From a bacterium (GTDB lineage Bacteria; Patescibacteriota; Minisyncoccia; Phycocordibacterales; JBBTRF01): a stretch of DNA of 64,000 nucleotides. The translations under genes and the position numbers were made by a program. The notes under the pieces are model-generated. The model did no database searches. It saw only the letters and a list, made by a program, of their open reading frames with translations, and was not told the origin of the DNA. This document shows positions 34,845 to 63,886 of this stretch, piece after piece; within the stretch, counting starts at the first letter, position 1; each line of letters begins with the position of its first letter. Location: contig JBAXTI010000002.1 of the NCBI GenBank assembly GCA_037130265.1, forward strand, positions 26,870 through 90,869, read 5' to 3'.

Positions 34845-34851
34845 TCTGAGC

Positions 34852-42501: not shown

Positions 42502-42508
42502 TACCAGC

Positions 42509-44011: not shown

Positions 44012-44033
44012 CGGACGGAAACGACGATTAGAA

Positions 44034-47000
44034 ATGAAGCGTGTTTTTCACACAATTTCTTCGAGCGTAAAAAAAGCCTTTCTGGTCTTTTTCCTACTCA
44101 ACTTTGTTTTCTCTCCAGTCTTCAACGATATCCTTCTCAGCTCGAATCTCGGCGCTCCTTTGGCGGCGAGTGTTGCAGAGGCAGCTTTCAATCAGCAGAT
44201 CAACTACCAGGGCAAGCTCACCGACACATCCAACGTGGCTGTGTCAAATGGTTCGTACAACATCGAATTCAAGTTGTACACCTCGCTCACCGGCGGCACT
44301 GCGATCTGGACCGAGACTTGGTGTAAGGGAACTTCGTGTTCCGGTACTGGCACTGACAGCCGTGTCACTGTTTCAAACGGCTTGTTCAGTACGATGCTCG
44401 GCAGCACGACGGCTTTGACTGGTGTAGATTTCAATCAGCCATTGTATCTCGGTGTAAATATCGGTGGATCGGCAAGTACCCCAACTTGGGATGGTGAAAT
44501 GACCCCGCGAAAAATTCTCGGTGCAGTCCCGGCTGCATTCGAAGCGAAGCGACTCAACGGTTTGAACGACACACAGTTCTTGCGAACCGATACCACCAAT
44601 GCAACCTCGACCGCATCGACGTTCATCACTCTCACGCAGTCTGGTGCTGGAAATATTTTGAATCTCGTCGGACAAGGTTCCGCGAGTGTCTTCACCGCAC
44701 TCTCAAGCGGCAACGTCGGCATCGGCACCACCTCCCCTGGCCAGAAGCTTTCAGTCGCCGGAGATATTTTGGGAAACAACATTATCGGTAGTTATTTTAC
44801 GGCGACAACTTCAACTGCCACTTCGACTTTTAAAGGCTTGAGCGCAACTGCTATTGCTGCCAACAAATACATTACCTCCGACGGTACATTCCAATTCACC
44901 TCACCATACGCGGGGACACTCAATGTCACTACTCAACAGATTGGTCAAAACGCAATACTCAGCGCGACATCGCAGACGGGTAAGATTTTCAGCTTCGTCT
45001 CCAACGATACTTTGGCAACCATTAGTACTCAACCCGGTGTGCCGCTCGTGTTGAATACTGCGGGCAGTGAGAGGATTCGAATCGGTACCGCTGGTCTTGT
45101 CGGTATCGGAACTACAACCCCATGGAGGACCCTTTCCGTCAACGGCTCATCAGACCTCGGCACCAACGCTCTTGCTGGATACTTCACCGCCACCTCATCA
45201 ACCGCCTCCGTCTTCCCATACGCCTCCACCACCGCACTCACGGTATCTGGTACCAATGGTCTCCAGCTCGCATCAGCATTGAACGGTCCTCTTCAGGCAA
45301 ATGGGGGACTTGTCTCTGCCACCACCTCAGTCGGCGTTTTGTACGGTGGCACCGGCCTCACCTCTGCGCCTTCATACGGTCAGCTTCTCATGGGCAATGC
45401 CTCAAATGGATACACTTTGTCTGCCACCTCTTCTCTCGGCCTTCTCGGTTCATCGACGGTCTCGTCACTCACCTCAAGCTATGTGCCAAAGTGGGGAGGT
45501 TCAGCGTTTTCAAATAGCAATCTGTATGATGATGGGACAAATATCGGTATTGGAACCACGACCGGACTGTCGAAACTTACCGTAAACGGCATCGCACGGT
45601 TTAACAGCAATCAGGATCCAGGCGATTATTTCTACACCAATGGGATTTCAAGTGATGGTCGTATTGAATTCCGTTCTGCTGATAATGGCAACGGCGGAAA
45701 TCAGCGAATATTTATGTCTTCTGGGTACAGTACTGGTTGTGTCGGATTTGGAAATAGTGCCGATAGCGCTTCCAATAACTCTTTGAGTTGTGGAGGTAGT
45801 ACGGGCAACTCCATCGTCGCGACTCCAGGTGCACTTTCGATGGTTTCGGTGAATATTGGAGGTATTCCTGGTGTTGGAACAACTAAGGGTTTAAACATCG
45901 CTACTCCATATAGTGCAAGTGGCATCTCAACTAGCTCAAATAGTATGGTCGACATTAGTACTTTTTCAGTCATTGCAAACGCCGCAACAGGTCAACGTCC
46001 GGGTATTCATTTTACAGCGCTTCAGTACGCTTTTGGTGTCGGTGATACGTACGCAGGTGCCGGTGATGGTTACAGTACTCGGGCAATGACGATCGCAAGT
46101 AGTACTGAGATTGGTATCGGTACCAGTACTCCATACGCAAAGCTCTCACTTCTCGGCACTTCTGCGACAATGTCGACCTTTGCGCTTGTGCCAAAGGCTT
46201 CTCAGACCGCGAATATTTTGGATATTTACAACACCGCCTCGACTCCTGTCCTTACCTCGGTGATTACTGCCGCAGGCAAGTGGGGTATCGGCACTACTTC
46301 TCCAGGACAGATGTTGTCTGTCGGCGGAGATATCTTGGGTAATGTCCACATCGGTACATACTTCACTGCAACCTCCACTGCCGTGGCTTCTACCTTCCCA
46401 TACGCCTCAACCACTGCACTCTCAGTCTCTGGAGCTTCATACTTCACTGGCCTTTCAACCTTCGCCAACCTCCTCGCAACCGGCTCCTCAACTCTCCAAA
46501 ACCTCACTTTCATCAACGCCACTGGTACCAACGCGACGACAACGAACTTCTTCGCGACCACCGCTTCATCGACAAATCTCTTTGCTTCAAATCTTGCGGT
46601 GGGAGGAAACGTGCTGACAACAAGTGGGGGAAATGTCGGCATCGGGACGGCGAGTCCAAATGCTAAATTACACGTATCTGCTCCTTTAGATGATTTAGCT
46701 CCTCCCGCTCTCGGCACAATTAGTGCAAACACATCGGCATATTTCACAAATCAAAATCCACTCTACGGTTTGATGGTTGGAAGTTTGACAGGTGGCCCTA
46801 CTTATTTGCAAGTACAAAGAACAGATAGTGCCACAGCGTATAGTTTATTGTTGAATCCAAACGCAGGCAACGTCGGCATCGGCACCACTTCTCCAGCCAC
46901 CACTTTGTCTGTTGCCGGCTCTGGATACTTCACTACTGGTATTGGTGCGGGTGTACTCAATACCACCACAGGTACTATCAAGGCAAGCGTGAGCTATGAC

Positions 47001-50000
47001 ACGTCAGATTCTACTGGTCTGTACAAGATAAATGGCTCAACGATGTTGTCTGCTTCGACCACTAACGCCAACTATTTCTTCGGTACGAGCCCGGCAACGC
47101 TTCAAACAACCTTCTCAGGCACAAACAACTTTGGCCTCGGCTTGAACGACCTCAACGCCAATACCACAGGCTCTGGAAACGTCGCGATGGGTCGAGACGC
47201 GATGTTGGCAAATACTACGGGCGCCACAAACGTGGCGATCGGTTATTTGGCGTTCCGCAATGCAACCACTTCAGGTTCTGATAACGTGGCGATCGGTAAC
47301 TTGGCGCTTGCGGGGACGGCGAGCGTTGCAAACACGGGCAGTAACAACGTTGCCATTGGTCCATCAGCTCTGTTTGCTAACACATCGGGTGCTAGTAATG
47401 TCGCTATTGGTCCGAGTGCGCTCGCCTCAAACACCACCGGACAATTCAATATCGGTATTGGAAATCAGGCCATGACATCAAACGCGGCAGGACAGAACAA
47501 CACGGTCCTCGGTGTCAGCTCGATGAAGTATACGAAAACGGGTAACTACAACGTTGCCATCGGTACTTCGGCGAACCAGTACAACATGTCAGCTACCTCT
47601 ACGACTATCGTTGGAGAAGAGGCTGCGCAGGGTGTGAATAATGTTTCTTACTTCCAAAATGTAACTGCTTTGGGGTACCGTTCGTTGTATGCCATTACAA
47701 CAGCAGATGACACCACGGCTGTCGGTTATGGTTCTGGTGGGTCAGTAACGAGTGGAGTACAAAACACCTTTGTGGGTTCAAACTCAGGTGGAGGTGTTAC
47801 GACGGGTTCAGGCAACACACTCATTGGATACAACACAACCGCGACCGGAGCTACAATCTCAAATGCTATCGCTATCGGTTCGGGAGCGTCGGTAGGTTGT
47901 TCGAACTGTGCGGTGTTGGGCGGTACGAGTGGATCCGCAGTGATTGTCGGTGTGGGCACTTCTACTCCATATGCAAAGTTGAGTATTCAAAACGGTGTTG
48001 CCGCTACTACTACTATGGCACTTGTTCCTGCTGCTTTACAAACTGCCAACATCCTCGACATCTACAACACCGCCTCGACTCCTGTCCTTACCTCGGTGAT
48101 TACTTCCGCAGGCAAGTGGGGTATCGGCACCACTTCTCCAGGACAGATGTTGTCTGTCGGCGGCGACATCTTGGGTAACGTCCATATCGGTACATACTTC
48201 ACCGCGACCTCAACTACCGTCGCCTCAACCTTCCCATACGCTTCTACTACAGCACTCTCAGTCTCTGGAGCTTCATACTTCACCGGCCTTGCCACCCTTG
48301 GTAACGCTTCTACCACCCAGATCGGCTCGACCGGTTCTGCTTACTTCGTGACAAGTGGAACGGGAAGTGTGGGTATCGGCACCACCTCTCCCGCTACCAC
48401 ACTCTCTGTCGTTGGTAGCATTTACAATACAGGCGGTATCGGAGTAGGAAAGCTAAATACTACAGCCAACACCATTGACCTCGGTGTGGGTGCCACAGGT
48501 GCTACGTCAGGACTATACAAAATCAACGGTACCACTGTCGTCTCCGCTTCCTCGACCCTCAGTAACTTCTTCTTTGGAACGCTTCCTCCAACACTCAGTA
48601 CAACCATGACAGGTTCTAACAACAACGGTATCGGTGCTGGTGCATTAAACTCTCTCACCACAGGTCTTGAGAACAATGCTATCGGAGTAAACGCTGCTGC
48701 AAACCTCACAACTGGACAGTACAACATCGCTATTGGGCGAGATGCGATGCTCGCTAATACCGTCGGTAATAGAAACATTGCTATTGGCTATTTGGCAGAC
48801 CGAAACGCTACATCTTCATCTGTAGATAACATTATGATTGGTCAGAGTGCGGGTGCAGGTGTTGCGGCGAGTGGTCGAATCAGCACCTCTATTGGAAACA
48901 TCGGTATTGGTAACAGTTCCCTAAAACTTGTAACGTCTGGTACATATAATACGGCGGTTGGGTATGGCACTGCTTCAAACCTAGCAGATGGTTCACAGAA
49001 TATGTTCTTCGGAGCCTTTTCGGGAGCAGCCATGACTTCGGGAGGAGGAAACGCTGCGATTGGGTACAATGCAATGGGACTCACAACGTCGGGTTCAAAC
49101 AACCTAGCAGTCGGCACGAATTCTCTAATGGGAAACATCACAGGTATACGAAACGTATGTGTCGGTACGGGCTGTTCACAGTATAACCAATCAGCAACTT
49201 CCACTGTTGCCATTGGATATGCGGCGGCACAGGGTTCAAGTAACTACAGCGCACAAGGTATCGTAGCAATAGGAGATGCGGCACTCAGCTCGGTAACAAC
49301 AGCTTCGGACTACAATACCGCTATCGGGTATCAAGCTGGATACAGCAACGCAAACGGTACAGGAAATACATACATTGGCGCAAGTGCTGGTGTCAACAAT
49401 ACGTCAGGTTCAAATAACATCATGATTGGGCGAGCTACAGACTTTGCTGGCAACATTTCCTACTACATGAACATTGGAAACTTCCTATACGCTACCTCAA
49501 CAACGGCAGGAAGTGCCTTCGGGTCGTTCGGCATCGCTACCACAACACCTTCTGCTCGGTTCTCAATTAAGGGACTAGGTACTGGTACTGGTCGTTTACT
49601 CGCTTTCTCCGACTCAAGCAACGTGGAGCGACTGACGATGTTTGATAACGGTAATGTCGGCATCGGCACCACTTCTCCATGGCGAACACTTTCGGTGAAC
49701 GGCTCATCTGACCTCGGTACCAACGCTCTCGCTGGATACTTCACCGCAACCTCGACCACCGCTTCCACCCTCCCATACGCTTCCACCACCGCACTCTCCG
49801 TCTCCGGAGCTTCATACTTCACCGGCCTTTCAACCTTTGCCAACCTCCTCGCAACCGGCTCCACCACCCTCCAAAACTTCACCTTCGTAAATGCAACTGG
49901 TACCAGTGCTACCACCACCAACTTCTTTGCAACCACGGCGTCTTCAACTAACCTCTTTGCAAGTACCGCCAATCTCAACGCAGCAACCATCGGTACTACT

Positions 50001-53000
50001 CTCGGAGTCACCGGTGCTACTACTCTCTCCTCAACTCTCAATGTCACCGGCCTCACCACCCTTGGCAACGCTTCTACTACCCAGATCGGCTCAACCGGTT
50101 CTGCGTACTTTGCGACGAGTGGGGGGAATGTGGGCATCGGGACGACATCGCCTGGTTCGAAACTTGATGTAAACGGAGATATCAATGCGAACACTTATTA
50201 TCGTTATAAAGGCGGGATATTTGTCAACGCATCATCAACTAAACAGAATATGTTCGTCGGTATGGGTGCTGGAAATCTCACCACAACTGGAATTGGTAAT
50301 ACTGCGATTGGATATAATTCTGGCGCTGCACTAACAACTCAAAATGCCAGCATTAATCCTTTTCCAGTTCAAGCTGACACATTCATTGGAACGAACGCTG
50401 GCGCAGCGAATACTTCAGGAGATTCTAACGTTTTTGTAGGTTACAATGCTGGCGCAGTAAATACTTGTGGTCGCTCGACAGTTGCAATCGGTGCCTATGC
50501 TGGGGCGAGCTATGTGAGTGAGCCTGGATGTCCAGATATTGAAAATGGACTAAACGTCTTTATCGGTTCAGCTGCTGGACAATATATTACTGCTGGTTTG
50601 CATAACGTCTTTATTGGTGAAGATACTGGGCTACTCATGCAAAGTGGCTCGAACAACACCTTCCTTGGTTCGCATGCGGGCACAGGAATACTTACTGGCA
50701 ATGAAAGCACATACATCGGCGGTAGTGCTGGAGATTTCGCTTCAACTACTGGTGATGGAAACATCGGTATCGGAGTAAGATCTGCTCTATATCTTGATGG
50801 TTCCGCACAGTATAACGTTTTTCTTGGGAATGGCGCTGGCGCAGGTACTGAGGCTAATCCTAACGTAGCTTCGTTTAACACAGCTGTTGGTACTGGGGCA
50901 GGTTATCTGTTGACTACAGCCACTGGCGCAACTTTCTTGGGCTATCAAGCTGGATTGCAGGTCACCACTGGATACAGTAACACTCTTGTCGGTTATCAAG
51001 CCGGGTGGAATCTAGTGAGCGGTGTAAATAACACCTTCTTGGGTTATCAGGCTGGTTATAATACAACTGGTTCAGCAAATATTTTCCTTGGTGATCAGGC
51101 GGGAGCTTCTAATACTACTGGCTCAAACCAGTTTGTGGCCGGTGGAGATCATGCAAACTATCTCATTAGCGATGTATATTTCGGTCGAGGTATAAACAGC
51201 GCGACTCCTAGCACGTACACTATCCACGGAACTGGTGGCCTCGGTACAAATATTACTGGTGGTGATATCAATATTGCTGGTGGAGCAGGAACAGGATCTG
51301 GAGTGGGTGGAAATATCATTTTCCAGACTTCGAATACTGGGAGCTCAGGAACTACTTTGAATACGCTCTCCGAAAAAATAAGAATTACTAATTCTGGGAA
51401 AATAGGCATCGGTACTACAACCCCATGGAGGACGCTCTCCGTGAACGGATCATCCGATCTCGGTACCAACGCTCTCGCTGGATACTTCACCGCAACCTCG
51501 ACCACCGCTTCCACCCTCCCATACGCTTCCACCACCGCACTCTCCGTCTCCGGAGCTTCATACTTCACCGGCCTTTCAACCTTTGCCAACCTCCTCGCCA
51601 CCGGATCTTCCACCCTCCAGAACTTCACCTTCGTGAATGCTACTGGTACCTCAGCTACCACCACCAACTTCTTTGCTACTACTGCATCTTCTACTAACCT
51701 CTTCGCAAGTACCGCTACATTCAACGCCGCTTCAATTGGTACCACTCTTTCAGTCACTGGCCTTACCACTCTCGGCAACGCTTCTACTACTCAGATTGGT
51801 TCAACTGGTTCTGCATACTTTGCGACGAGTGGGGGGAATGTGGGCATCGGGACGACGACGCCAGATGGAAATTTAACTGTATATAATCCGTCAGGAGCAA
51901 GCACAGTAGATATTATGGGAAGTAGTGCTGGGTCATTGCTTAGGATTTCCCAGGGAAGCACTTTGGCTCAAGGAACAATTGATTTGGGAGTACACTCACC
52001 ACAGGCTGGTTTATTCCGTAGTGGCGGCACAAGTGGATTTGTTGCGTACGATACTGGGACTGGTGACACTATATTGAATAATGTTTTCGGTGGATCTAGT
52101 TTGTTGAGATTAAATTACGGTGGGACTACGGCTTTGGCAATAAATAGTAGTGGCAACGTCGGCATCGGCACCACCTCTCCTGGCCAGAAGCTTTCAGTGG
52201 CGGGAGATATCTTGGGTAATGTCCACATCGGTACATACTTCACTGCAACCTCCACTGCCGTGGCTTCTACCTTCCCATACGCCTCAACCACTGCACTCTC
52301 AGTCTCTGGAGCTTCATACTTCACCGGCCTTTCAACCTTTGCCAACCTCCTCGCAACCGGCTCCACCACCCTCCAAAACTTCACCTTCGTAAATGCAACA
52401 GGAACTAATGCAACGACAACGAATTTCTTTGCAACTACGGCGAGTTCAACTAATCTTTTTGCTTCAACTGCCACCCTCAACACTGCTTCAATTGCAAATA
52501 CTCTCAATGTCACCGGCCTCACCACCCTTGGCAACGCTTCTACTACCCAGATCGGCTCAACCGGTTCTGCGTACTTTGCGACGAGTGGGGGGAATGTGGG
52601 CATCGGGACGACGAGCCCGACGACGGCTTTGTTGGCAATCCAAAATAGTTCTGGACATTCATTCGATATATTTAGCACCGCAAATGGTTCTGCTGGGACA
52701 GCGATGACGATCAATGTAAATACTAGTTCAGCAAAAGCTCTGCAGATCAATTCAAATACGACAGACACCCCAATTACTGTGACTCACGTAGATCCTGGAA
52801 ACGTCCGAAATGCGGATATTTTCGGTATCAATATAAGTGAGACCCTAAACTCGATTGGCAATATCGGTGCCAATGATTACAAGTACGGTGGCGGAAACTT
52901 TGAGGTAACACAAAATGCTTCACCAGCTACTGCAAAAGATGTGTTCGGTGTTCGAGGAGTTTCAACAGCAAACAATGTTAATTTTACTGCGTACGGCGGA

Positions 53001-56000
53001 TATTTTAGTGGTAACTCAACGAACGGTACAGCTTACGGTGTCTATTCAGCTGCCGGAAAGAACTATTTTAACGGCAACCTCGGCATCGGCACCACCACTC
53101 CAGGCCAGAAGCTTTCGGTAGCGGGGGATATTTTGGGTAACAATATTATCGGCTCATACTTCACGGCGACTTCGACAACCGCTTCCTCGACTCTCAATTC
53201 CGCCCTTGGCATCGGCACGACAACCCCAAGTGCACGTTTGGCGATCACTGGATACGGCACCGCTGACACTGGCCGAGCTTTTGCGATCGCCAATAGTTCA
53301 AATGCTGAAAAGCTTTACGTGACAGACAGTGGCAAGACACGATTCAGTAATTTTGTGGCAATTAACTCTGATCCAAGCACAAACAACGGCACCGGCGCGA
53401 CTCTGTACGTAAAGCAGACTACGGGCTCGACAGGGTTCCCGTTCCAGGTTGTGAACACTTCAGATACAAACCTGTTCAGTGTAGATACATCTGGAAATAC
53501 AAACACAGCTGGCTCCGTCACCGCTTCTGCAAATGGATTCATTACTTCGTCCAGTGGAGGCGCTGCCTTCTTGCGCTTGACGCATACCTCCGGACGCTCA
53601 TTTGAAGTTCGCAGTAATAGTTCTTCGTATTTCTCTATCTACGACGCGACAGCTTCTGCTGATCGGTTGGTTGTGGCTGGCATTGGCACTGTTGGTATCG
53701 GCACCACCACCCCCTACGCTCAACTTTCTATTGTCAGCGGTGCCGCAGCCACCACCACTCTTGCCCTCAAGCCAGCCGCATCTCAAACCGCCAATATCCT
53801 GGATATCTACAGCAATGACGCAACTCCTGTCTTGAAATCGGTCATCACAGCGGCGGGCAAGTTCGGCCTCGGCACCACCTCCCCTTGGCGCACCCTCTCC
53901 GTGAACGGCTCATCAGACCTCGGTACCAACGCTCTTGCAGGGTACTTCACAGCTACTTCATCAACTGCCTCAGTCTTCACATATGCATCGACGACCGCAA
54001 TCTCTGCATCGGGTTCGGCATACTTTGCTACGAGTGGGGGAAATGTGGGTATCGGCACCACCTCTCCTTGGCGAACTCTCTCGGTCAACGGCTCATCCGA
54101 CCTCGGTACCAACGCTCTCGCTGGTTCCTTTACCGCAACTTCTACGACTGCCACTTCCACCTTTGCTGGCTTTATTGACGTCAATGGTACCGGCTCCAAT
54201 GCCACTTCCACCTTTGCTTCAAATCTTTGGGTGAAGGGTGCGATGAAGATCGGTACAAACTCGATCTATCTGAATGGTGCAGCGACTTCCACCTTCGGTG
54301 CAGGTATCAATCTCACCACTGGCTGCTTCTCGGTGAACGGTACTTGTGTTGGTGGTTCGAGTGCGGCAGTGGCAATTGGTAGTGCTATTACTGGCGGTAC
54401 CGCTGGCTCAGCGCTTTTCGTGGACGTTTCTGGAAATATTGCTCAGGACAATACGAATTTCTTCTGGGACAACTCGAGCAAATATTTAGGAATCCAAACT
54501 GCCACCCCAGGGTATCCTCTTGATGTAAATGGCACCGCTCATGCGACGACCTTGAACGCGGGCACCATTACCGACGGTGCAGGCTTTACTGTTACCGGAG
54601 GCACTATTGGTGGGGGTGTATGGAACGGCACAGCAATCGGTACAACGTACGGTGGCACTGGTATTAACTCTTCAGGCTCAACTGGTGTGGCTCAGATATC
54701 TTCAGGAACCTGGAGCGTCGGAGCTATCGATATTAGTTCCTCAAGCAATGTCACGGGCACATTGTCAGTGGCAAATGGCGGTACTGGCGCGACCTCATAC
54801 ACCGCTGGGTCAATTACTTTCTCAGATGGTACGAATCTTACGCAGGATAATGCAAACCTGTTCTGGAACAACTCGAGCAAATATTTAGGAATCCAAACTG
54901 CCACCCCAGGGTATCCTCTTGATGTAAATGGCACCGCTCATGCGACGACCTTGAACGCGGGCACCATTACCGACGGTGCAGGCTTTACTGTTACCGGAGG
55001 CACTATTGGTGGGGGTGTATGGAACGGCACAGCAATCGGTACAACGTACGGTGGCACTGGTATTAACTCTTCAGGCTCAACTGGTGTGGCTCAGATATCT
55101 TCAGGAACCTGGAGCGTCGGAGCTATCGATATTAGTTCCTCAAGCAATGTCACGGGCACATTGTCAGTGGCAAATGGCGGTACTGGCGCGACCTCATACA
55201 CCGCTGGGTCAATTACTTTCTCAGATGGTACGAATCTTACGCAGGATAATGCAAACCTGTTCTGGAATAATTCCACAAAGGCTTTGGGAATTGGCGATAC
55301 TGCTCCTGGTGCGAAGCTTTCGGTAGTGGGTAATGCATCGATTGGTTATGCGACTGGTCAGACCGCGCCGACAAACGGATTGTTAGTGGCTGGTAGTGTC
55401 GGCATCGCCACCACTTCTCCAAGCCTCGCAACGTTTACTGTTGAGGGAGGTTCAGGTGCCACAACAGCTTTCTTCACAGGGAGCGTCAATAGCTATCAGG
55501 AGGTGCTTAATCAAAATCGAAGCAATGGTACGAGTGCTTCGACTGACTTTGTTGCAGTAAACAATATCGGTAATGCAAGTTCTTACTACGTGAATTTGGG
55601 TATTAATAGTTCTGGTAATGCCGACCCTTCTTACACCCTCTTCTCCGCAAATGACGCCTACCTATACTCGAGTGATTCAGCCTTAAACCTCGGTACTGCA
55701 AGCACTACCAACACGAACGCAGTCATCAAATTCTTCACTGCTGGCACGGTCGCTGGCAAGGAGCGTGCCCGGTTCAGTTCGACGGGTAACTTCGGCATCG
55801 GCACGACCTCCCCTGGCCAGCTCCTTTCAGTCGCAGGTGATATTTTGGGCAACAATATTATTGGCAGCTACTTTACGGCGACGAGTACGACAGCGACATC
55901 GACCCTCGCTGGGGGATTTACCATGGGTTCAAGTGGTCTTAATGCGTATGCAAACGGCAAGGTTGGCATCGGCACAACCACCCCACAGTGGCTGCTCAAC

Positions 56001-58466
56001 TTGCAGTCATCGACCGCTCCACAGCTTGCTTTGTCGGCTGGTGCAGGTATAGCACAGTGGGCATTTAGAAATGCCGGTGGCGACCTCTACTTTTCTACCA
56101 CCACCACCGCCGGTACAGCGACCACGAGCACCGCCGCTTTCTCGGTCTCTGGTTCCGGCTTCGGTACCACCACTCTTCGCGGGTTGACCATCTCTGGCCA
56201 GGCAACCTCAACTTCGAATGTCGGCTTCAATCTCACAGCGGGTTGCTTCGCGGTGAACGGCACTTGTGTTGGAAGCAATAATGGTACTTCTCAGTGGACC
56301 ACTACGGGTTCAGATATTTACTACACCACCGGCAAAGTGGGTGTAGGCACCACAACTCCATGGGCTAACTTCTCAGTGGGTACTCATAACCTGGCGATCA
56401 CCACACCGTCTTTCGTGATTGCTTCTTCGTCGGCGGCCCTCGCGACGTCAACTCAGTTTATTGTCACAAATGGCAAGGTCGGAATAGGTACTTCGACTCC
56501 AAACTGGATGCTCCAGGTGGCGAACACCCGTCCGTCCTTTGCGCTTTCTGACACCAATGCCGGTGCCAACTTGAAACACTGGACACTTTCGTCGCAGGGC
56601 GGTAATTTCTACTTTGCAACATCTTCCGATGCGTTGGCAACATCGACCACCCCGGCAGGCATGTTTAATAGCAGTGGTTGGTTTGGTATCGGTACCACCT
56701 CACCATGGGCACCGCTGTCGGTTGCCGGTATTAGTGCGGCTACTTCTTTCTACGCCACCGCGACTACTTCGACTTCTACTATGGCCGGCAGCTTGAATGT
56801 GGGTAACGGTGCGCTCTTCTACGATTATGCCGGTGCGTACACTAGTATCGACAACTTGCAGATCGGTGCGATGGCTTTCGATACCAACGCCGGTGCTGTG
56901 AGCTGGGCAGATATGCCAATCACTTCAGCGGCTGCCGCAAGTACTACGGAAAGCTACACCGCACAGTTGGGAGGTAATGCCGTGCTCACTATCTACGGTG
57001 AAGCTGATGGCGCCGGCGGCGTGAACACCCTCCGTGTTGGTATCGGTACCACCTCTCCGGCTGGTGCTGCGGCTGGTCCGCTCACCATGGCTTCGGGGGC
57101 GTATGTTACTACCGGTGGTACTTGGACCAACGCTTCGAGCCGAGCTGGGAAGGAGAATTTTACAGCACTCGATTCACTTGATGTGTTGCAGAAGATCAAC
57201 GCCCTTGATGTGACCCGATGGAATTACAAGAGTGAGTCAGCAGGTACTACTCATATTGGTCCAGTGGCAGAGGACTTCTACGCTGCGTTTGGTACTGGTA
57301 GTGGTCCAGGTTCTATCTCGACCATCGACCCTTCCGGTGTCGCGCTTATTGGTATACAGGCGCTGTCTCGAGGCTTTGATATCTCTCATGCAGGTACAAC
57401 CACCCCTTCTATTCAGTCACTCTTTGTGGGCACCACCACTCCGGCTCTTTCGATCGACGCTGCTGGCAATATCGGTATCGGTACTTCCTCTCCGGCATAC
57501 AAGCTTCATGTGTTAGGTGATATCGCGGCAACTTCTTTTGTAAATATCAGTACACGTGAGGCCAAGAAGGATATTAGCTATCTCTCAGCAGCGGAAAACG
57601 AAAGCGCACTGAACAAAATAAAGGGCCTCAATGTTGCGACGTATCGATACAATATTGAGTCGGAAAGTAACCCGCTTCGACTGGGTCTCATCGCTGAGGA
57701 GGCACCTGCCGAGATCCTCGCGGCTTCAGGAAAGGGTGTGGATATTTACAAGCTTTCAACCTTTATCCTCGCCGGAGTGAAGGCACAGCAGGTGAAAATC
57801 GAGTCCCTCGAATCTCGAGTCGCGCACCTCGAGGCGGTGCAGGGCGGTGGTTCAACATCGAATGGTGCCGCCGGCATTGCCGAATATCTCAGCTCGATGG
57901 GCGCCCAGCTCTCCGCTTCGGTGTCACGATTCCGCAATGTCCTCGCTGAGTCCCTCACCGTCGGTACTGCCGAGAAGCCATCGGGCATCACTCTCTATGA
58001 CGAAGTCACCAAGCAGCCATACTGCTTGAAGATTTCTGGTGGTGCACCGGTGAGTGTGCCTGGCGAATGTGCTGCAGTATCTGCAGGCGGTACTTCAGGT
58101 ACCACTAATACCACGACAGGCGGGACCACTCCTGGTGGTTCAGGGACTACGACTACTCCAGTGGTAGGTGATACCGTTGCACCGGTCATTACAATCAATG
58201 GCAACAACCCGGCAAATATCGACAAGGGGGCTTCGTATAATGACCTCGGCGTAACCGTGACCGATAATATCGATAATAACCTCGGTATTACCACCACAGG
58301 CGATCAGATAGACACCACCGTTGCAGGCACTTATACTGTTCATTACAGTGCGACAGACGCAGCAGGGAATACCACAAATGCAACTCGCACGGTGATTGTG
58401 TCAGAAGTCTCTGTACCGAGTGCGGCTCCTGATGTCTCTGTGTCTACGAGCACAACTACTCCATAA
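44034..58466 (+). CDS. giant (4810 aa) repeat-rich secreted/anchored surface fibre protein with two tandem peptidase-S74-like intramolecular chaperone segments and a C-terminal DUF5011-like Ig domain
   Basis: It is a single uninterrupted ORF with an N-terminal hydrophobic segment. About 4300 aa of Gly/Thr/Ser/Ala/Asn-rich degenerate repeats follow, built on 'GNVGIGTTSPGxKLSVAGDILGN' and 'WRTLSVNGSSDLGTNALAGYFTATS' modules. A 'LSVANGGTGATS' motif is present. Residues ~4366-4445 (NASSRAGKENF...IGIQAL) and ~4505-4600 (NISTREAKKDI...ESRVAHLE) each carry the S-x-R-x-x-K Ser-Lys dyad pattern and downstream blocks typical of tail-spike chaperone domains. The C-terminus 'VITINGNNPANIDKGASYNDLGVTVTDNID..GTYTVHYSATDAAGNTTNATRTVIV' is DUF5011-like. 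Confidence 0.85.
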   Translation: MKRVFHTISSSVKKAFLVFFLLNFVFSPVFNDILLSSNLGAPLAASVAEAAFNQQINYQGKLTDTSNVAVSNGSYNIEFKLYTSLTGGTAIWTETWCKGTSCSGTGTDSRVTVSNGLFSTMLGSTTALTGVDFNQPLYLGVNIGGSASTPTWDGEMTPRKILGAVPAAFEAKRLNGLNDTQFLRTDTTNATSTASTFITLTQSGAGNILNLVGQGSASVFTALSSGNVGIGTTSPGQKLSVAGDILGNNIIGSYFTATTSTATSTFKGLSATAIAANKYITSDGTFQFTSPYAGTLNVTTQQIGQNAILSATSQTGKIFSFVSNDTLATISTQPGVPLVLNTAGSERIRIGTAGLVGIGTTTPWRTLSVNGSSDLGTNALAGYFTATSSTASVFPYASTTALTVSGTNGLQLASALNGPLQANGGLVSATTSVGVLYGGTGLTSAPSYGQLLMGNASNGYTLSATSSLGLLGSSTVSSLTSSYVPKWGGSAFSNSNLYDDGTNIGIGTTTGLSKLTVNGIARFNSNQDPGDYFYTNGISSDGRIEFRSADNGNGGNQRIFMSSGYSTGCVGFGNSADSASNNSLSCGGSTGNSIVATPGALSMVSVNIGGIPGVGTTKGLNIATPYSASGISTSSNSMVDISTFSVIANAATGQRPGIHFTALQYAFGVGDTYAGAGDGYSTRAMTIASSTEIGIGTSTPYAKLSLLGTSATMSTFALVPKASQTANILDIYNTASTPVLTSVITAAGKWGIGTTSPGQMLSVGGDILGNVHIGTYFTATSTAVASTFPYASTTALSVSGASYFTGLSTFANLLATGSSTLQNLTFINATGTNATTTNFFATTASSTNLFASNLAVGGNVLTTSGGNVGIGTASPNAKLHVSAPLDDLAPPALGTISANTSAYFTNQNPLYGLMVGSLTGGPTYLQVQRTDSATAYSLLLNPNAGNVGIGTTSPATTLSVAGSGYFTTGIGAGVLNTTTGTIKASVSYDTSDSTGLYKINGSTMLSASTTNANYFFGTSPATLQTTFSGTNNFGLGLNDLNANTTGSGNVAMGRDAMLANTTGATNVAIGYLAFRNATTSGSDNVAIGNLALAGTASVANTGSNNVAIGPSALFANTSGASNVAIGPSALASNTTGQFNIGIGNQAMTSNAAGQNNTVLGVSSMKYTKTGNYNVAIGTSANQYNMSATSTTIVGEEAAQGVNNVSYFQNVTALGYRSLYAITTADDTTAVGYGSGGSVTSGVQNTFVGSNSGGGVTTGSGNTLIGYNTTATGATISNAIAIGSGASVGCSNCAVLGGTSGSAVIVGVGTSTPYAKLSIQNGVAATTTMALVPAALQTANILDIYNTASTPVLTSVITSAGKWGIGTTSPGQMLSVGGDILGNVHIGTYFTATSTTVASTFPYASTTALSVSGASYFTGLATLGNASTTQIGSTGSAYFVTSGTGSVGIGTTSPATTLSVVGSIYNTGGIGVGKLNTTANTIDLGVGATGATSGLYKINGTTVVSASSTLSNFFFGTLPPTLSTTMTGSNNNGIGAGALNSLTTGLENNAIGVNAAANLTTGQYNIAIGRDAMLANTVGNRNIAIGYLADRNATSSSVDNIMIGQSAGAGVAASGRISTSIGNIGIGNSSLKLVTSGTYNTAVGYGTASNLADGSQNMFFGAFSGAAMTSGGGNAAIGYNAMGLTTSGSNNLAVGTNSLMGNITGIRNVCVGTGCSQYNQSATSTVAIGYAAAQGSSNYSAQGIVAIGDAALSSVTTASDYNTAIGYQAGYSNANGTGNTYIGASAGVNNTSGSNNIMIGRATDFAGNISYYMNIGNFLYATSTTAGSAFGSFGIATTTPSARFSIKGLGTGTGRLLAFSDSSNVERLTMFDNGNVGIGTTSPWRTLSVNGSSDLGTNALAGYFTATSTTASTLPYASTTALSVSGASYFTGLSTFANLLATGSTTLQNFTFVNATGTSATTTNFFATTASSTNLFASTANLNAATIGTTLGVTGATTLSSTLNVTGLTTLGNASTTQIGSTGSAYFATSGGNVGIGTTSPGSKLDVNGDINANTYYRYKGGIFVNASSTKQNMFVGMGAGNLTTTGIGNTAIGYNSGAALTTQNASINPFPVQADTFIGTNAGAANTSGDSNVFVGYNAGAVNTCGRSTVAIGAYAGASYVSEPGCPDIENGLNVFIGSAAGQYITAGLHNVFIGEDTGLLMQSGSNNTFLGSHAGTGILTGNESTYIGGSAGDFASTTGDGNIGIGVRSALYLDGSAQYNVFLGNGAGAGTEANPNVASFNTAVGTGAGYLLTTATGATFLGYQAGLQVTTGYSNTLVGYQAGWNLVSGVNNTFLGYQAGYNTTGSANIFLGDQAGASNTTGSNQFVAGGDHANYLISDVYFGRGINSATPSTYTIHGTGGLGTNITGGDINIAGGAGTGSGVGGNIIFQTSNTGSSGTTLNTLSEKIRITNSGKIGIGTTTPWRTLSVNGSSDLGTNALAGYFTATSTTASTLPYASTTALSVSGASYFTGLSTFANLLATGSSTLQNFTFVNATGTSATTTNFFATTASSTNLFASTATFNAASIGTTLSVTGLTTLGNASTTQIGSTGSAYFATSGGNVGIGTTTPDGNLTVYNPSGASTVDIMGSSAGSLLRISQGSTLAQGTIDLGVHSPQAGLFRSGGTSGFVAYDTGTGDTILNNVFGGSSLLRLNYGGTTALAINSSGNVGIGTTSPGQKLSVAGDILGNVHIGTYFTATSTAVASTFPYASTTALSVSGASYFTGLSTFANLLATGSTTLQNFTFVNATGTNATTTNFFATTASSTNLFASTATLNTASIANTLNVTGLTTLGNASTTQIGSTGSAYFATSGGNVGIGTTSPTTALLAIQNSSGHSFDIFSTANGSAGTAMTINVNTSSAKALQINSNTTDTPITVTHVDPGNVRNADIFGINISETLNSIGNIGANDYKYGGGNFEVTQNASPATAKDVFGVRGVSTANNVNFTAYGGYFSGNSTNGTAYGVYSAAGKNYFNGNLGIGTTTPGQKLSVAGDILGNNIIGSYFTATSTTASSTLNSALGIGTTTPSARLAITGYGTADTGRAFAIANSSNAEKLYVTDSGKTRFSNFVAINSDPSTNNGTGATLYVKQTTGSTGFPFQVVNTSDTNLFSVDTSGNTNTAGSVTASANGFITSSSGGAAFLRLTHTSGRSFEVRSNSSSYFSIYDATASADRLVVAGIGTVGIGTTTPYAQLSIVSGAAATTTLALKPAASQTANILDIYSNDATPVLKSVITAAGKFGLGTTSPWRTLSVNGSSDLGTNALAGYFTATSSTASVFTYASTTAISASGSAYFATSGGNVGIGTTSPWRTLSVNGSSDLGTNALAGSFTATSTTATSTFAGFIDVNGTGSNATSTFASNLWVKGAMKIGTNSIYLNGAATSTFGAGINLTTGCFSVNGTCVGGSSAAVAIGSAITGGTAGSALFVDVSGNIAQDNTNFFWDNSSKYLGIQTATPGYPLDVNGTAHATTLNAGTITDGAGFTVTGGTIGGGVWNGTAIGTTYGGTGINSSGSTGVAQISSGTWSVGAIDISSSSNVTGTLSVANGGTGATSYTAGSITFSDGTNLTQDNANLFWNNSSKYLGIQTATPGYPLDVNGTAHATTLNAGTITDGAGFTVTGGTIGGGVWNGTAIGTTYGGTGINSSGSTGVAQISSGTWSVGAIDISSSSNVTGTLSVANGGTGATSYTAGSITFSDGTNLTQDNANLFWNNSTKALGIGDTAPGAKLSVVGNASIGYATGQTAPTNGLLVAGSVGIATTSPSLATFTVEGGSGATTAFFTGSVNSYQEVLNQNRSNGTSASTDFVAVNNIGNASSYYVNLGINSSGNADPSYTLFSANDAYLYSSDSALNLGTASTTNTNAVIKFFTAGTVAGKERARFSSTGNFGIGTTSPGQLLSVAGDILGNNIIGSYFTATSTTATSTLAGGFTMGSSGLNAYANGKVGIGTTTPQWLLNLQSSTAPQLALSAGAGIAQWAFRNAGGDLYFSTTTTAGTATTSTAAFSVSGSGFGTTTLRGLTISGQATSTSNVGFNLTAGCFAVNGTCVGSNNGTSQWTTTGSDIYYTTGKVGVGTTTPWANFSVGTHNLAITTPSFVIASSSAALATSTQFIVTNGKVGIGTSTPNWMLQVANTRPSFALSDTNAGANLKHWTLSSQGGNFYFATSSDALATSTTPAGMFNSSGWFGIGTTSPWAPLSVAGISAATSFYATATTSTSTMAGSLNVGNGALFYDYAGAYTSIDNLQIGAMAFDTNAGAVSWADMPITSAAAASTTESYTAQLGGNAVLTIYGEADGAGGVNTLRVGIGTTSPAGAAAGPLTMASGAYVTTGGTWTNASSRAGKENFTALDSLDVLQKINALDVTRWNYKSESAGTTHIGPVAEDFYAAFGTGSGPGSISTIDPSGVALIGIQALSRGFDISHAGTTTPSIQSLFVGTTTPALSIDAAGNIGIGTSSPAYKLHVLGDIAATSFVNISTREAKKDISYLSAAENESALNKIKGLNVATYRYNIESESNPLRLGLIAEEAPAEILAASGKGVDIYKLSTFILAGVKAQQVKIESLESRVAHLEAVQGGGSTSNGAAGIAEYLSSMGAQLSASVSRFRNVLAESLTVGTAEKPSGITLYDEVTKQPYCLKISGGAPVSVPGECAAVSAGGTSGTTNTTTGGTTPGGSGTTTTPVVGDTVAPVITINGNNPANIDKGASYNDLGVTVTDNIDNNLGITTTGDQIDTTVAGTYTVHYSATDAAGNTTNATRTVIVSEVSVPSAAPDVSVSTSTTTP
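54468..55267 (+). repeat. perfect tandem duplication of a ~399-bp (133-codon) unit inside the giant ORF
   Basis: The two ORF-track entries 54577-54888 and 54976-55326 have identical translations offset by exactly 399 nt. Direct comparison shows sequence identity from about 54468 to about 55267. Confidence 0.8.
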
Positions 58467-58471
58467 TCCAC

Positions 58472-60565
58472 ATGCACACTTACTTCTCTAAAATTTGTTT
58501 CGGCGTCAGTCTCACGGTTCTTTTATTGTGCAGTGTGGTTCCTGTGTATGGAGCTGCAAAAATCAATACACCAGTGACTGGTCAAATGAATACAGGGCTT
58601 GTTGGGTACTGGACATTCGATGCTCCTGATACGAGTTTTGTATCGAATACTGTTACTGACAAGTCGGGAAGTGGTAATACCGGAACAATGATCAGTATGG
58701 CTACAAGCACCTCACGAGTCCTCGGCAAGCTTGGACAGGCACTCTCTTTTGATGGGGTGGCGAAATATATCTCATTGCCAAATCTCGATAGGCAGGCCCC
58801 TTTGTCCATCGCTTTTTGGACAAAAAGAGGGAGAACCGGGCAGGCGAGTGACAACATTATTGGGGGGAGTTGCGGATCGTGGGGGATTGGATTCAATGCA
58901 AATAATACACTTTTTTTGACAAACACGTGCGTGAATGTCGCAAACTCAACGGGTACTATTGCGGATACTACAAAATGGCATCATGTAGTCGTCACCTACG
59001 ATGGTTCGAATGCTCGTTTTTATTTCGACGGAGCTCTGGATTCTTCTCCGGTGTATGCAAGCGGTACGTTCAATAGTAGTGCGGTGGCGTATACGATTGG
59101 CAGAGTAAATGTTACTGCCTATTACAAGGGTTCGCTCGATGATGTGCGTGTGTACAGTAAAGTTTTGAGTCAGAGAGAGGTGACCACTTTGTATACACTT
59201 GGCCAAGAAACCATCCAGAAGTCACAGAATAATAAGGTGACTAGCGGCCTGACGCATCTGTGGACATTTGATGGTGCTGATCTCAATACAATTACAAAAA
59301 CCGTGTATGATCGAGCTGGGACCACCAACGGTACTATTGTGGCTTTGGCGACAAGTACTCAGTTGGTAAACGGCGCTCTTGGTCAGGCTTTTAATTTTAA
59401 TGGAACTAGTCAGTATGCTTCTTTAGCCGATATTAATACAGCCCTTAATCCACCGGCAAGTATTGCTCTATGGATAAAGCGCGGACAAACCAGCGCTGCC
59501 GCTGATGAGGGTATAATCGGGTACTCCGGTTCTGGATGCACCGGTCAAAATGTGTGGGGGGTCGGTATTGCTTCTGGAGCGAATGCGAATAAACCATTTC
59601 TTACTGAGGTTGGTATTGGCGCGCAGTATCCAACAGGCACTATTACCGATCGTAATTGGCATCATTTGGTACTAACGCTAGATGGTACGAATATTCGTTT
59701 CTATATTGATGGAGTTTTGGACTCCACGGTGGCAAATGCTACTACCTTTACCTGCGTTGCTTCTTCTGCGTTTGCCATTGGAACAGTTAATACTAGTGGT
59801 TGGTACAAGGGAGCGGTCGATGACATCCGTATGTATAATAGAGTTTTGTCTGCGAATGAGGTTAAAAGTCTCTATTCGATTGGTAAATCTACCATCCAGA
59901 AATCACAGAATACAAAGGTAAATACGGGGCTTGTTGGACTATGGTCTTTTGATGGGGCAGACATGACTTCAACTGTAGCCACCGACCGAAGTGGCAATGG
60001 TTATAATGGCACACTCACGAACATGACCCTCAAGAATGTAGTCACCCCAGGAAAGATTGGCCAGGCTCTCCAGTTTCAAGGTGGTTCGGCGTATATACTC
60101 ACCGCTAACGATATTATGAGTAATCCGACCGGTCTAACGATCGCATTTTGGATGAAGTCGGCCACTATCCCTGCATCAACCCAACGCGTGTTCTCCGTTG
60201 AAGGAGCTTACGTGATCACTCTGACCACGGCCGGCAAACTGCAGGGCATTGTGGATGGTGCAGAAGCCGAGTACGCGCAGACTTCTGTTATCAGCGATAA
60301 CAAGTGGCACCACGTCGCGTTTACGCATAATGGCGCAATTGCGGGTGGAAGGATCTATGTCGATGGGGTGGCGAGTAGTACGTTTACGGGTTCCTCGTAT
60401 AGTGGATTCTATAATATTAACTCTCTGACACGCCCTGTCGCCATCGGTGGAAATGTTTCCCCGAACCCCATCTCGCCATTTATTGGCTCGCTCGACGATG
60501 TTCGGCTGTATAATAGAGTCATCACCAATGCAGAGATCACTCGTCTCTATAGCATAGGAAAATAA
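58472..60565 (+). CDS. secreted protein with three tandem LamG-like (concanavalin A-like lectin/glucanase, Laminin_G_3-type) domains
   Basis: A signal peptide is present. Three repeats each begin 'GL(V/T)G(Y/L)W(T/S)FDGAD' and end 'DDVR(V/M)Y(S/N)(K/R)VLS..E(V/I)..LY'. It lies 5 nt after the giant ORF stop. Confidence 0.8.
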   Translation: MHTYFSKICFGVSLTVLLLCSVVPVYGAAKINTPVTGQMNTGLVGYWTFDAPDTSFVSNTVTDKSGSGNTGTMISMATSTSRVLGKLGQALSFDGVAKYISLPNLDRQAPLSIAFWTKRGRTGQASDNIIGGSCGSWGIGFNANNTLFLTNTCVNVANSTGTIADTTKWHHVVVTYDGSNARFYFDGALDSSPVYASGTFNSSAVAYTIGRVNVTAYYKGSLDDVRVYSKVLSQREVTTLYTLGQETIQKSQNNKVTSGLTHLWTFDGADLNTITKTVYDRAGTTNGTIVALATSTQLVNGALGQAFNFNGTSQYASLADINTALNPPASIALWIKRGQTSAAADEGIIGYSGSGCTGQNVWGVGIASGANANKPFLTEVGIGAQYPTGTITDRNWHHLVLTLDGTNIRFYIDGVLDSTVANATTFTCVASSAFAIGTVNTSGWYKGAVDDIRMYNRVLSANEVKSLYSIGKSTIQKSQNTKVNTGLVGLWSFDGADMTSTVATDRSGNGYNGTLTNMTLKNVVTPGKIGQALQFQGGSAYILTANDIMSNPTGLTIAFWMKSATIPASTQRVFSVEGAYVITLTTAGKLQGIVDGAEAEYAQTSVISDNKWHHVAFTHNGAIAGGRIYVDGVASSTFTGSSYSGFYNINSLTRPVAIGGNVSPNPISPFIGSLDDVRLYNRVITNAEITRLYSIGK

Positions 60566-60589
60566 ATTACGCACGTTTGAAGAAAACAC

Positions 60590-60598
60590 TGCTATAAT
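60590..60598 (+). promoter_or_regulatory. extended -10 element TGCTATAAT upstream of the second LamG gene
   Basis: Read directly. It lies 13 nt before ATG 60612. An identical 12-mer, CTGCTATAATTA, sits at 62690-62701. Confidence 0.35.
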
Positions 60599-60611
60599 TA
60601 ATTCCACTCTA

Positions 60612-62687
60612 ATGATCAGAGAGACTTACAAAAATTCCTCACCTCTGGCAGTTTTATTCCTGCTCGGGACCATTTTCTTGCCGATTTTTGCCCACGCATC
60701 AGCGAAGGTGAATGTCTTGGCTCGACCGAAAAACACCTCAGGCCTCATAGGGTATTGGTCTCTGAATGGTGCGGATATGAACGCTACAACTGCATTCGAT
60801 CGTAGTGGAAATGGATACGACGGGACTTTTCAAGCCATGGGCCTCAGGAATGTTATATCGGGAAAAGTCGGACAAGCTCTTTCTTTCGATGGTTCAACTG
60901 CGTATATTTCACTTCCGAACCTTGATCGTCAAGCACCTCTTACGTGGTCATTTTGGGTAAAGCGAGCAAGATTGGGCCAGGCGAACGAGGATTTTTTTGG
61001 CGGTGACAGTAGTGGTGCGTGGGGTTTTGGATTCAATGCTGACAATACGATGTTTCTTACAAACGTCGGAATTAACAGCGTGAGTTCGACTGGTGCCATT
61101 GCAGATACAGACTGGCACCATATTGTGGTGACGTATGATGGATCAGACGTCAGTTTTTATTTTGATGGAGTTTTGGACTCGGCGCTGAGCTATTCCAGCG
61201 GCACGTATAATAGTAGCGGTGCCGCATATGCAATCGGCAGGGTGAATGTCAGTGCATATTTTGAGGGTAGGCTTGATGAAGTGCGCATGTATGATCGTGT
61301 ATTGGCTGCCCCCGAGGTGAGGACTTTGTATCAGGACTCGGCAGCGAAAATTTTAGGTCCATCGTCTGGGAACTCTAATGTGTCTAGTGGTCTTATTGGT
61401 TTTTGGTCTTTCAATAAGGAGGATGTGGTAAATGGAGCGCTTGTCGATCGAAGTATTTCGGGAAATACAGCATATCTTCAAAATATTGCTACTTCAACGG
61501 TTTACAGCGCTGGTCGTATTGGGCGAGGCCTTACTTTTGATGGTTCTGATGACTATGCGGTGACAGGCGCTACGACCTGGGGTATTACGAACACTCTTTC
61601 GATGTCTGCGTGGATTAAGACAACGGCTAATGCTGTTTCGATCGCTGAGCTTGGGCGCGTCACTGTCTTGGACGAGGCTTTGCTGTACATTCATAATAAC
61701 AGTGCGGCAATCTTCTTTTCTCAAGGGGCTGGTGTATATACTGGAGTATATGGTTCTAGGCAGGTCAATGACGGTCAGTGGCATCACGTGGTCGCTGTTT
61801 CGACTGGGCCAAGTATTGCCTGTGCAAATGTAAGGATATATGTGGACGGTGTTCGTGATACTGAGAATTGTATTACTGAAAATGTGTCGAGTCTAAGTGA
61901 CGCATCGCCACGCAGATTCTTTATTGGTTGGCGAGCTTGGGGTGGTGGTACCTCTGAGATATACAATGGTAGTGTCGATGACGTGCGTCTGTATGGTCGT
62001 GCGATAAGTGCTAGTGAAGCTCTGCAGCTGTACCGCATGGGAATTACTACAAAAGCCAATGTTTCGCAGAATACTAAGGGTCGTAACGGTCTCGTGGGTC
62101 TATGGTCTTTTGACGGGGCCGATATGGTGGCCGGGACAACAGCGTATGATAGGAGTGGTAATGGGTATGATGGCATATTGAGTGGTCTGTCTGCTCCGAA
62201 GATTGGCGTGGGAAAAATTGGTCAAGCGCTTCGGCTGCATGGGACGAGCGGTTATGTAAGTGTCTCCAATCTCGATATGAACACCTTAAGTACTTTTGGT
62301 TGGATTAACACGACTGTAGTGGGCAATCAGGTTATCGTGGCGACTCTGGCAAATGGTGGGTGGTCATTCTTCCTAGGGGCAGGTAATAACCTCACATTTC
62401 TCAAGAGAGGTATCGGTGGGGTGACTTCAAGTGCTACTATCGGGACTAATGGCTGGCATTATGTCGGGGTTACCTATGATGGTGCGACGGCAAAATTTTA
62501 CATCGACGGTGTTTTGGATAGTTCAAATGCCTATAGTCAGACATTCAACAATGGCTCCGTTGGGTACGGTTTGGGTGGTATTGAGATCGGTGGATACACC
62601 GTCACTGGCCGACTTGATGATGTTCGCGTCTATAATAGGGTCCTCACGGCGAGCGAAATTAGAACGATGTATAACCAAGCTAAATAA
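60612..62687 (+). CDS. secreted triple LamG-like domain protein, paralog of 58472-60565
   Basis: It has the same signal peptide plus three-repeat organisation (GLIGYWSLNGADM..., DDVRLYGRAISASE..., DDVRVYNRVLTASEIRTMY). Confidence 0.8.
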   Translation: MIRETYKNSSPLAVLFLLGTIFLPIFAHASAKVNVLARPKNTSGLIGYWSLNGADMNATTAFDRSGNGYDGTFQAMGLRNVISGKVGQALSFDGSTAYISLPNLDRQAPLTWSFWVKRARLGQANEDFFGGDSSGAWGFGFNADNTMFLTNVGINSVSSTGAIADTDWHHIVVTYDGSDVSFYFDGVLDSALSYSSGTYNSSGAAYAIGRVNVSAYFEGRLDEVRMYDRVLAAPEVRTLYQDSAAKILGPSSGNSNVSSGLIGFWSFNKEDVVNGALVDRSISGNTAYLQNIATSTVYSAGRIGRGLTFDGSDDYAVTGATTWGITNTLSMSAWIKTTANAVSIAELGRVTVLDEALLYIHNNSAAIFFSQGAGVYTGVYGSRQVNDGQWHHVVAVSTGPSIACANVRIYVDGVRDTENCITENVSSLSDASPRRFFIGWRAWGGGTSEIYNGSVDDVRLYGRAISASEALQLYRMGITTKANVSQNTKGRNGLVGLWSFDGADMVAGTTAYDRSGNGYDGILSGLSAPKIGVGKIGQALRLHGTSGYVSVSNLDMNTLSTFGWINTTVVGNQVIVATLANGGWSFFLGAGNNLTFLKRGIGGVTSSATIGTNGWHYVGVTYDGATAKFYIDGVLDSSNAYSQTFNNGSVGYGLGGIEIGGYTVTGRLDDVRVYNRVLTASEIRTMYNQAK

Positions 62688-62700
62688 TTCTGCTATAATT

Positions 62701-63774: not shown

Positions 63775-63812
63775 TACTGCCCTAATTTTCTTTTTAGCTA
63801 GAACTCATCAAA

Positions 63813-63869: not shown

Positions 63870-63886
63870 TTTCCTATAATAGAGGG

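Follow-up and report, generated by a model that had tools for sequence, protein, structure and literature searches.

Probable recent in-frame tandem duplication of a 399-nt module in a giant tail fiber-like gene of a patescibacterium

The window analyzed here is a 64,000-nucleotide (nt) stretch of an uncultured patescibacterial genome (NCBI GenBank assembly GCA_037130265.1, contig JBAXTI010000002.1, positions 26,870 to 90,869 of the forward strand), and coordinates below are positions within it unless another contig is named. It holds a giant gene (NCBI MEI6346149.1) at 44034 to 58466 on the plus strand, as are all the features within it; the gene encodes a tail fiber-like (MAT-like) protein of 4,810 amino acids (aa) with 30 GIGTTxPxxxL capping-loop motifs. 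Inside this gene two copies of a 399-nt unit lie head to tail, and our analysis concerns this repeat.

Nucleotides 54469 to 54868 are identical to nucleotides 54868 to 55267, a 400-nt exact match at an offset of 399 that was found both by reading the sequence and by exact comparison. Copy 1 occupies 54469 to 54867 (133 codons, about aa 3479 to 3611) and is an exact match to copy 2 at 54868 to 55266 (about aa 3612 to 3744); position 55267 is the 400th matching base. Tandem Repeats Finder reported the interval 54462 to 55267 with a period of 399, 2.0 copies, 99% matches, no indels, and a score of 1605. The repeat is in frame, as (54468 − 44034) mod 3 is 0 and the period is 133 codons, and the open reading frame (ORF) that holds both copies has no internal stop. 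The initial annotation, which had described an exact in-frame 2 × 399-bp tandem duplication, therefore agrees with all three analyses. Its statement that the 133-codon units match without a single mismatch holds when the copies are phased from 54469; phased from 54468, they differ at the first base, which is g in copy 1 (54468) and a in copy 2 (54867), giving Asp3479 versus Asn3612. An 82-residue peptide quoted as present in each unit occurs in full only once, spanning the junction, and its second instance ends ...LFWNNSTKALGIG.

No other exact repeat in the giant gene comes near the 400-nt match in length, the next being 140, 122, 113, and 92 nt, and the match cannot have arisen by chance. 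When the 399-nt unit was used as a blastn query against the window, the two copies and no others were found. Zero differences in 399 sites give a 95% upper bound of 0.75% on the divergence between the copies; the other paralogous modules of the gene are dispersed and 60 to 89% identical. No named family for the unit was found in Pfam, NCBIfam, or PHROGs.

Both outer boundaries of the repeat encode a QDNxNxFW(D/N)N motif. The left boundary, CAGGACAATACGAATTTCTTCTGGGACAACTCG (54444 to 54476), encodes QDNTNFFWDNS, and the right boundary, CAGGATAATGCAAACCTGTTCTGGAATAATTCC (55242 to 55274), encodes QDNANLFWNNS; the two are identical at 23 of 33 nt, with TTCTGG as the longest exact run. The unit's end is CAGGATAATGCAAACCTGTTCTGGAA, followed on the right side by TAATTCC. 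Between the copies, the junction CAGGATAATGCAAACCTGTTCTGGAACAACTCG (54843 to 54875), from which the right boundary departs at 55268, is a hybrid of the two boundaries. Around TTCTGGA-A-CAACTCG it is of the right-boundary type on the 5' side, through TTCTGGA, and of the left-boundary type on the 3' side, from CAACTCG, the switch falling within TTCTGG(A/G)A. The sequences to be compared are TTCTGGAACAAC at the junction, TTCTGGGACAAC at the left boundary, and TTCTGGAATAAT at the right boundary. The joint between the two units contains AACCTGTTCTGGAACAACTCGAGC, also given as CTGTTCTGGAACAACTCGAGC. The flanks had been described as diverged, and at an offset of 399 they do have only background identity (26 to 44% per 133-nt block), but the left boundary is a short homologue of the unit's end, and this homology explains how the duplication arose.

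The QDN..FW motif occurs in the giant protein at aa 3471, 3604, and 3737 and nowhere else; thus, two such motifs, at a distance of 399 nt, were present in the ancestral gene. Before the event, one QDNxNxFW(D/N)N-coding segment would have lain just upstream of the unit and the other at its end; the second copy would then have come from one event of slippage or unequal exchange within TTCTGG(A/G)A. We infer replication slippage or unequal exchange at a very short, imperfect homology and not RecA-type recombination between long repeats. The clean hybrid junction, and identity that is 100% across the unit and at background at both ends, are what would be expected of the very recent duplication that had been proposed. 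The two perfect 399-nt repeats would now be a substrate for further expansion or contraction, as in relatives with up to 12 identical copies (see below).

What the unit contributes to the protein can be judged from the protein's domains. The translation shows a hydrophobic segment at the N terminus, after which comes a conserved domain at aa 45 to 190 (44166 to 44603), which is 87 to 89% identical in syntenic orthologues, 60 to 65% identical in other Patescibacteria, and 34.5% identical (E = 2e-15) at locus L060 of a Bdellovibrionales metagenome-assembled genome (MAG). There are 30 matches in the protein to the capping-loop pattern [VFWLIK]G[ILV][GQARN][TDS]x(1,2)Px3[LF], and the GIGTTxPxxxL motifs align to GRVGVGTTAPTSALHV and GNLGLGTAAPTSALHV of the crystal structures 8OJN and 8OND. 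Toward the C terminus, Peptidase_S74 (PF13884), an intramolecular chaperone-protease domain, matched in two stretches with 59 bits (cut-off, 22; E = 5.6e-16). The first lies at 57135 to 57290, with SSRAGK at aa 4368; the second, an S74-like segment with STREAK at aa 4506, lies at 57549 to 57713, and the capping-loop motif that precedes it aligns to Bd3182 (8OJN). In both of these Ser-x4-Lys motifs the Ser and Lys are kept and the Asp of S-D-x-x-x-K is replaced. A Bact_surface_Ig-like domain (PF16403; E = 3.3e-16) at 58188 to 58400 ends the protein. Matches to PHROG tail fiber families were found in the C-terminal region (phrog_1980, E = 2e-18; phrog_18983, E = 3.5e-14) and in the N-terminal region (phrog_9942, E = 7e-8). 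The only solved structures in the PDB with similar sequences were the MAT fibers of Bdellovibrio bacteriovorus, Bd2133 (8OND) and Bd3182 (8OJN, 8ONB, and 8ONC).

MAT fibers are described in Caulton et al. 2024 (PMC10769870) as trimeric and beta-helical, the signal peptide being followed by a conserved N-terminal domain of ~130 aa; the capping-loop consensus given there is V-G-G/N-pi-x-x-P-x-x-x-L, and 13 of the 21 B. bacteriovorus MAT proteins have an autoproteolytic S74 chaperone. The protein encoded in the window resembles this S74 subgroup in an apparent counterpart of the leader and N-terminal domain (a hydrophobic segment and then a conserved domain of some 130 to 150 aa, compared through locus L060), in a capping-loop shaft that aligns residue by residue to Bd3182 and Bd2133, in a C-terminal S74 domain with Ser...Lys, and in its mosaic evolution, with conserved ends and a center exchanged between relatives. 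It differs in length, being about 4 to 5 times longer than the Bdellovibrio MATs of roughly 920 to 1,150 aa, in having two S74-like segments and an extra Ig-like C terminus, in having Ser or Thr instead of Asp as the second residue of S-D-x-x-x-K, and in being encoded in a genome of the candidate phyla radiation (CPR) next to a possible pam-like pilus cluster. The spacing from motif to Pro is also one residue longer than in the MAT consensus as we read it. From these comparisons the giant protein is probably an S74-type MAT-like fiber, and its trimerization and S74 autocleavage are predicted.

The two S74 segments of the protein have a capping-loop module between them and the Ig-like domain after them. 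Predicted cleavage at the first segment would free the second. Such a double arrangement is not described for Bdellovibrio MAT fibers in the passages of that article consulted here.

Around the repeat, capping-loop motifs lie at aa 3485, 3618, and 3751. With this spacing of 133 residues, the duplicated piece corresponds exactly to one module running from motif to motif, which would be a single beta-helix sub-domain if Bd3182 and Bd2133 are a guide. Full-length Bd3182 is about 550 Å long, and the 370-residue tip of Bd2133 is 142 to 150 Å long, according to the same article (PMC10769870). Scaled from these dimensions, the duplication would add one beta-helical module per chain and lengthen the shaft by roughly 5 to 10 nm. 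The proposal that changes in copy number would alter fiber length in 133-aa steps fits a unit that, from its motifs, appears to be one capping-loop interval of a MAT-like, S74-terminated fiber.

Whether the assembled repeat reflects the genome depends on how the contig was built. The source contig is NODE_28_length_165453_cov_21.08 of ENA assembly ERZ4222710, a SPAdes-style name with ~21× coverage, from a short-read metagenome. Logan provides an independent k = 31 assembly of run SRR12676966, in which two contigs match the window at 100%; this run is possibly the same read set as that of the ENA assembly, so that the method is independent and the data may not be. The first Logan contig (SRR12676966_68202, our L172) is 100% identical to 55238 to 64000. 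Its start, 55238, is exactly 30 nt (k − 1) before 55268, where the end of copy 2 leaves the end of copy 1. The window has two occurrences of this contig's first 30-mer, at 54839 and 55238, and just one of its first 31-mer, at 55238. A single copy would make the 30-mer unique, and the contig would run on through the unit; therefore, the reads hold two continuations of the unit's end, which by the position of the break would be one into the right flank and one back to the unit's start. The second Logan contig (L003), covering 30903 to 46256, stops at another internal repeat, its last 30-mer being present at both 46227 and 48063. These results support the presence of the junction branch in the reads, as opposed to its invention by the SPAdes-style assembly, and support at least two copies. 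The initial warning that assemblers may miscount such repeats was apt, and two copies should be taken as a minimum, not as a measurement. We infer that two copies are the dominant genotype in the sample. The gene length in the MAG (4,810 aa) may be under- or overstated at the repeat.

Relatives of the unit show what these genes can become. An exhaustive HMMER search with the unit gave 530 protein clusters at E ≤ 1e-3. The closest, P0036, shared 45% identity with the unit, and the search brought up no nearly identical protein that differed in copy number. P0036 (L161, 3001 to 10614; ENA ERZ25039461 contig_110275) carries 12.0 copies, 99% identical, of a 474-nt unit. A 1,589-aa homologue with the same N- and C-terminal architecture (L159) has a 300-nt unit in 2.1 copies with 7 mismatches, and a Bdellovibrionales MAG (L032) has a 435-nt unit in 2.0 copies with 2 mismatches, at the start of its contig. 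Adjacent units were ≥95% identical in 9 of 145 relatives and 100% identical in 5 of 145.

The syntenic orthologues have a different center. Two were found through their gatB and gap neighbors, of 3,615 aa (L164, 16074 to 21476, joined to L166, 1 to 7324; GCA_974945995.1) and 3,563 aa (L162, a Hainich groundwater contig). The rebuilt 3,615-aa orthologue aligns with the giant protein over just 254 aa at the N terminus (88%) and ~600 aa at the C terminus (50%), and the center has been replaced; it has 16 capping-loop motifs versus 30 and no QDN..FW motif. The difference in length from 4,810 aa reflects replacement of the center, not the number of units. We considered the syntenic orthologues as the state before duplication and rejected them as such because nothing in their centers is related to the unit (best match, 32%). 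Within the giant gene itself, exact tracts occur in dispersed modules at 49713 and 51459 (140 nt), 46326 and 52203 (122 nt), 50034 and 52500 (113 nt), and 49806 and 52308 (92 nt). They are bordered by divergence at third codon positions, a mosaic like that left by gene conversion. All four tracts exceed common short-read k-mer sizes, and the assembled order of the modules is correspondingly less certain. The contigs of two relatives begin inside a giant fiber gene or a near-perfect tandem repeat (L169, 1 to 2250; L032, 1 to 859); such fiber genes routinely break short-read assemblies.

On the sequence data, the giant gene is a hypervariable mosaic fiber gene. The arrays in relatives, the conversion mosaic, and the replaced centers together indicate that these genes normally evolve by duplication, conversion, and replacement of modules. 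Repetitive adhesin and fiber genes likewise normally grow by tandem duplication of modules, so the event described here is an ordinary one for such genes, and its principle is already covered by the literature on Periscope proteins (discussed below) and MAT fibers. What the locus adds is a case of a giant CPR fiber gene gaining a module, probably by slippage at a conserved motif, that is clean and datable, with copies that have not diverged and a hybrid junction between them.

Taking these results together, we consider it reasonably probable that the repeat is genuine and records the recent tandem duplication, in frame, of one module in a giant surface protein, trimeric and tail fiber-like, of a member of the Patescibacteria (CPR). 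Several points weigh against this. The copy number of 2 comes from one short-read metagenome contig at ~21×. No conspecific genome was found, and hence there was no single-copy ancestor or copy-number variant for comparison; the genus-level orthologues lack the unit altogether, the best central match to it being 32%. The structural interpretation rests on motifs aligned to the MAT crystal structures, and an AlphaFold2 monomer model of aa 3380 to 3850, made from a 35-sequence alignment, was poor (mean predicted local distance difference test [pLDDT] score, 56; predicted template modeling [pTM] score, 0.30). When we searched for the region as a one-copy construct in a 5.8-billion protein set, the GTDB genomes, and the JGI metagenomes, we found neither a single-copy nor a multicopy allele (best match, 39%), and the search of the 5.8-billion protein set returned neither the parent protein nor matches longer than 600 aa and so is probably blind to long proteins.

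A first alternative is that the duplication is real but that three or more copies, or alleles with 1, 2, and n copies side by side, are present in the population and the assembler gave the minimal path through a loop. This is possible, if on the whole unlikely. The contig has a SPAdes-style name and a coverage of 21, and a perfect 399-nt repeat exceeds the usual k-mer sizes; by our reasoning, no path that includes the junction edge is shorter than the one with two copies. As many as 12 identical copies occur in relatives, the 12-copy contig having a name of the kind given by long-read assemblers (its assembler is not known), and several relatives' contigs start or end inside such repeats or the giant gene, as in L032 and L169 above. 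Nothing in our data contradicts this alternative. SPAdes takes the multiplicity of short loops from coverage and paired reads, which would make two a measured number.

A bolder extension of the duplication reading draws on the Periscope proteins, in which DNA-identical repeats favor intragenic recombination and stalk length depends on copy number (Whelan et al. 2021, PMC8201768). Examples are SasG/Aap, Rib/alpha C, Sgo_0707 SHIRT, Esp, and CdrA, and long reads are needed to count the repeats (PMC8201768). The giant protein would share with them a surface stalk of repeated modules, some identical at the DNA level, its surface display being predicted. It differs in having only two identical copies among about 28 diverged modules. 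No strain-to-strain variation in copy number was seen, there being no conspecific genome with which to compare. Also, the giant protein appears to be a trimeric, S74-processed fiber, whereas a Periscope protein is a monomeric rod with a cell wall anchor, and its host is an uncultured patescibacterium. That perfect 399-nt modules expand and contract at high frequency here, giving Periscope-like length variation on a trimeric, S74-processed MAT-type CPR fiber, is suggested by the 12-copy arrays of relatives but is doubtful in our view. If it were true, the reach of the fiber tip from an episymbiotic cell of ~0.3 µm to its host would be tuned, possibly together with the adjacent pam-like pilus genes. 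In the literature on giant genes of Patescibacteria and on identical tandem repeats, we found nothing specific.

Alternatively, the duplication could be old and its copies kept identical by concerted evolution, through gene conversion or unequal crossing-over, possibly with selection for identical modules. The conversion-like mosaics elsewhere in the gene, with their exact tracts amid third-position divergence, make this conceivable. However, the copies match perfectly from one end of the unit to the other, and the match stops precisely at the hybrid junction and the boundaries, whereas an old duplicate that had been converted would usually show partial tracts and diverged edges, as the dispersed modules do; the genus-level orthologues also have no such unit. 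We regard this explanation as improbable. An assembly artifact, with one genomic copy and a second copy and junction created by misassembly or chimeric reads, might be suspected where a gene with so many internal repeats was assembled from short metagenomic reads, but it is very improbable, because the k = 31 assembly breaks exactly 30 nt before the divergence point, which needs two 30-mer continuations where a single copy would have let the contig extend through the unit, and because the junction is an in-frame hybrid inside a conserved motif, unlike random chimeras.

A recent duplication of one module remains the reading that we favor, and the genomic setting bears on what kind of fiber has gained it. 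Upstream of the giant gene are secA, a phospholipase D-like gene, eno, and genes for an MFS transporter, iPGM, and an AI-2E transporter, with obg and gatB; downstream are two Laminin_G_3 genes, gap, rpiB, and rpe. Among named sequences, the closest relatives of GatB and GAPDH belong to Patescibacteria/Paceibacterota (Taylorbacteria and Parcubacteria). Gene order is kept in genus-level relatives, in which GatB is 87 to 90% identical. Because the neighbors are housekeeping genes and their order is shared with relatives, the gene is chromosomal and its product a cellular fiber, not part of a prophage. We considered a prophage tail fiber gene and rejected it on these grounds and because there are no phage genes nearby. 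The likeness to phage S74 tail fibers and tailspikes, such as K1F endosialidase and T5 pb1, extends to the S74 domain and the PHROG tail fiber matches; unlike those, the gene lies among housekeeping genes. No tRNA genes or Rfam families were found in the 64-kb window.

Five unannotated small ORFs lie directly upstream of the giant gene, at 39547 to 43951 on the plus strand, and their order is conserved in related genomes. One of the five (41677 to 42501; 274 aa) has a weak match to the NCBIfam family CPR_pilus_PamT (E = 1.5e-9; 37.6 bits, far under the cut-off of 240). In CPR pam operons a "tail fibre-like protein" is consistently co-located (2026 preprint, 10.64898/2026.03.03.709456), and the upstream ORFs and the giant gene may be a pam-like pilus cluster with its fiber. 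The locus places a giant gene of the Patescibacteria in the MAT or S74 tail fiber-like class, beside a possible pam-type cluster, and this placement bears on how CPR bacteria attach to their hosts. Directly downstream, at 58472 to 60565 and 60612 to 62687, are the two Laminin_G_3 genes, tandem paralogues with three Laminin_G_3 (concanavalin-like lectin) stretches each. Relatives have one or two copies at the same place, and these genes may encode partner lectins of the fiber.

Other giant repeat proteins were met in the course of the searches. P0036 and a second homologue of the unit-bearing fiber (L004, 8522 to 13747) begin with a MerR/HTH-like N-terminal segment, followed by a hydrophobic stretch and then the fiber modules. 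This assignment is based on precomputed Pfam MerR/HTH_17 matches for P0036 and on a sequence in L004 that is similar by eye. A DNA-binding-type domain fused to a giant extracellular-type fiber is an odd architecture, and the gene for P0036 adjoins ATP synthase genes. A Bacteroidales MAG (L028, 15267 to 18693) contains 12.0 exact copies of a 285-nt unit in an Ig/PKD-like repeat protein, with nearby ORFs that look broken by frameshifts; this array was not used as evidence for the family because it belongs to a different kind of protein.

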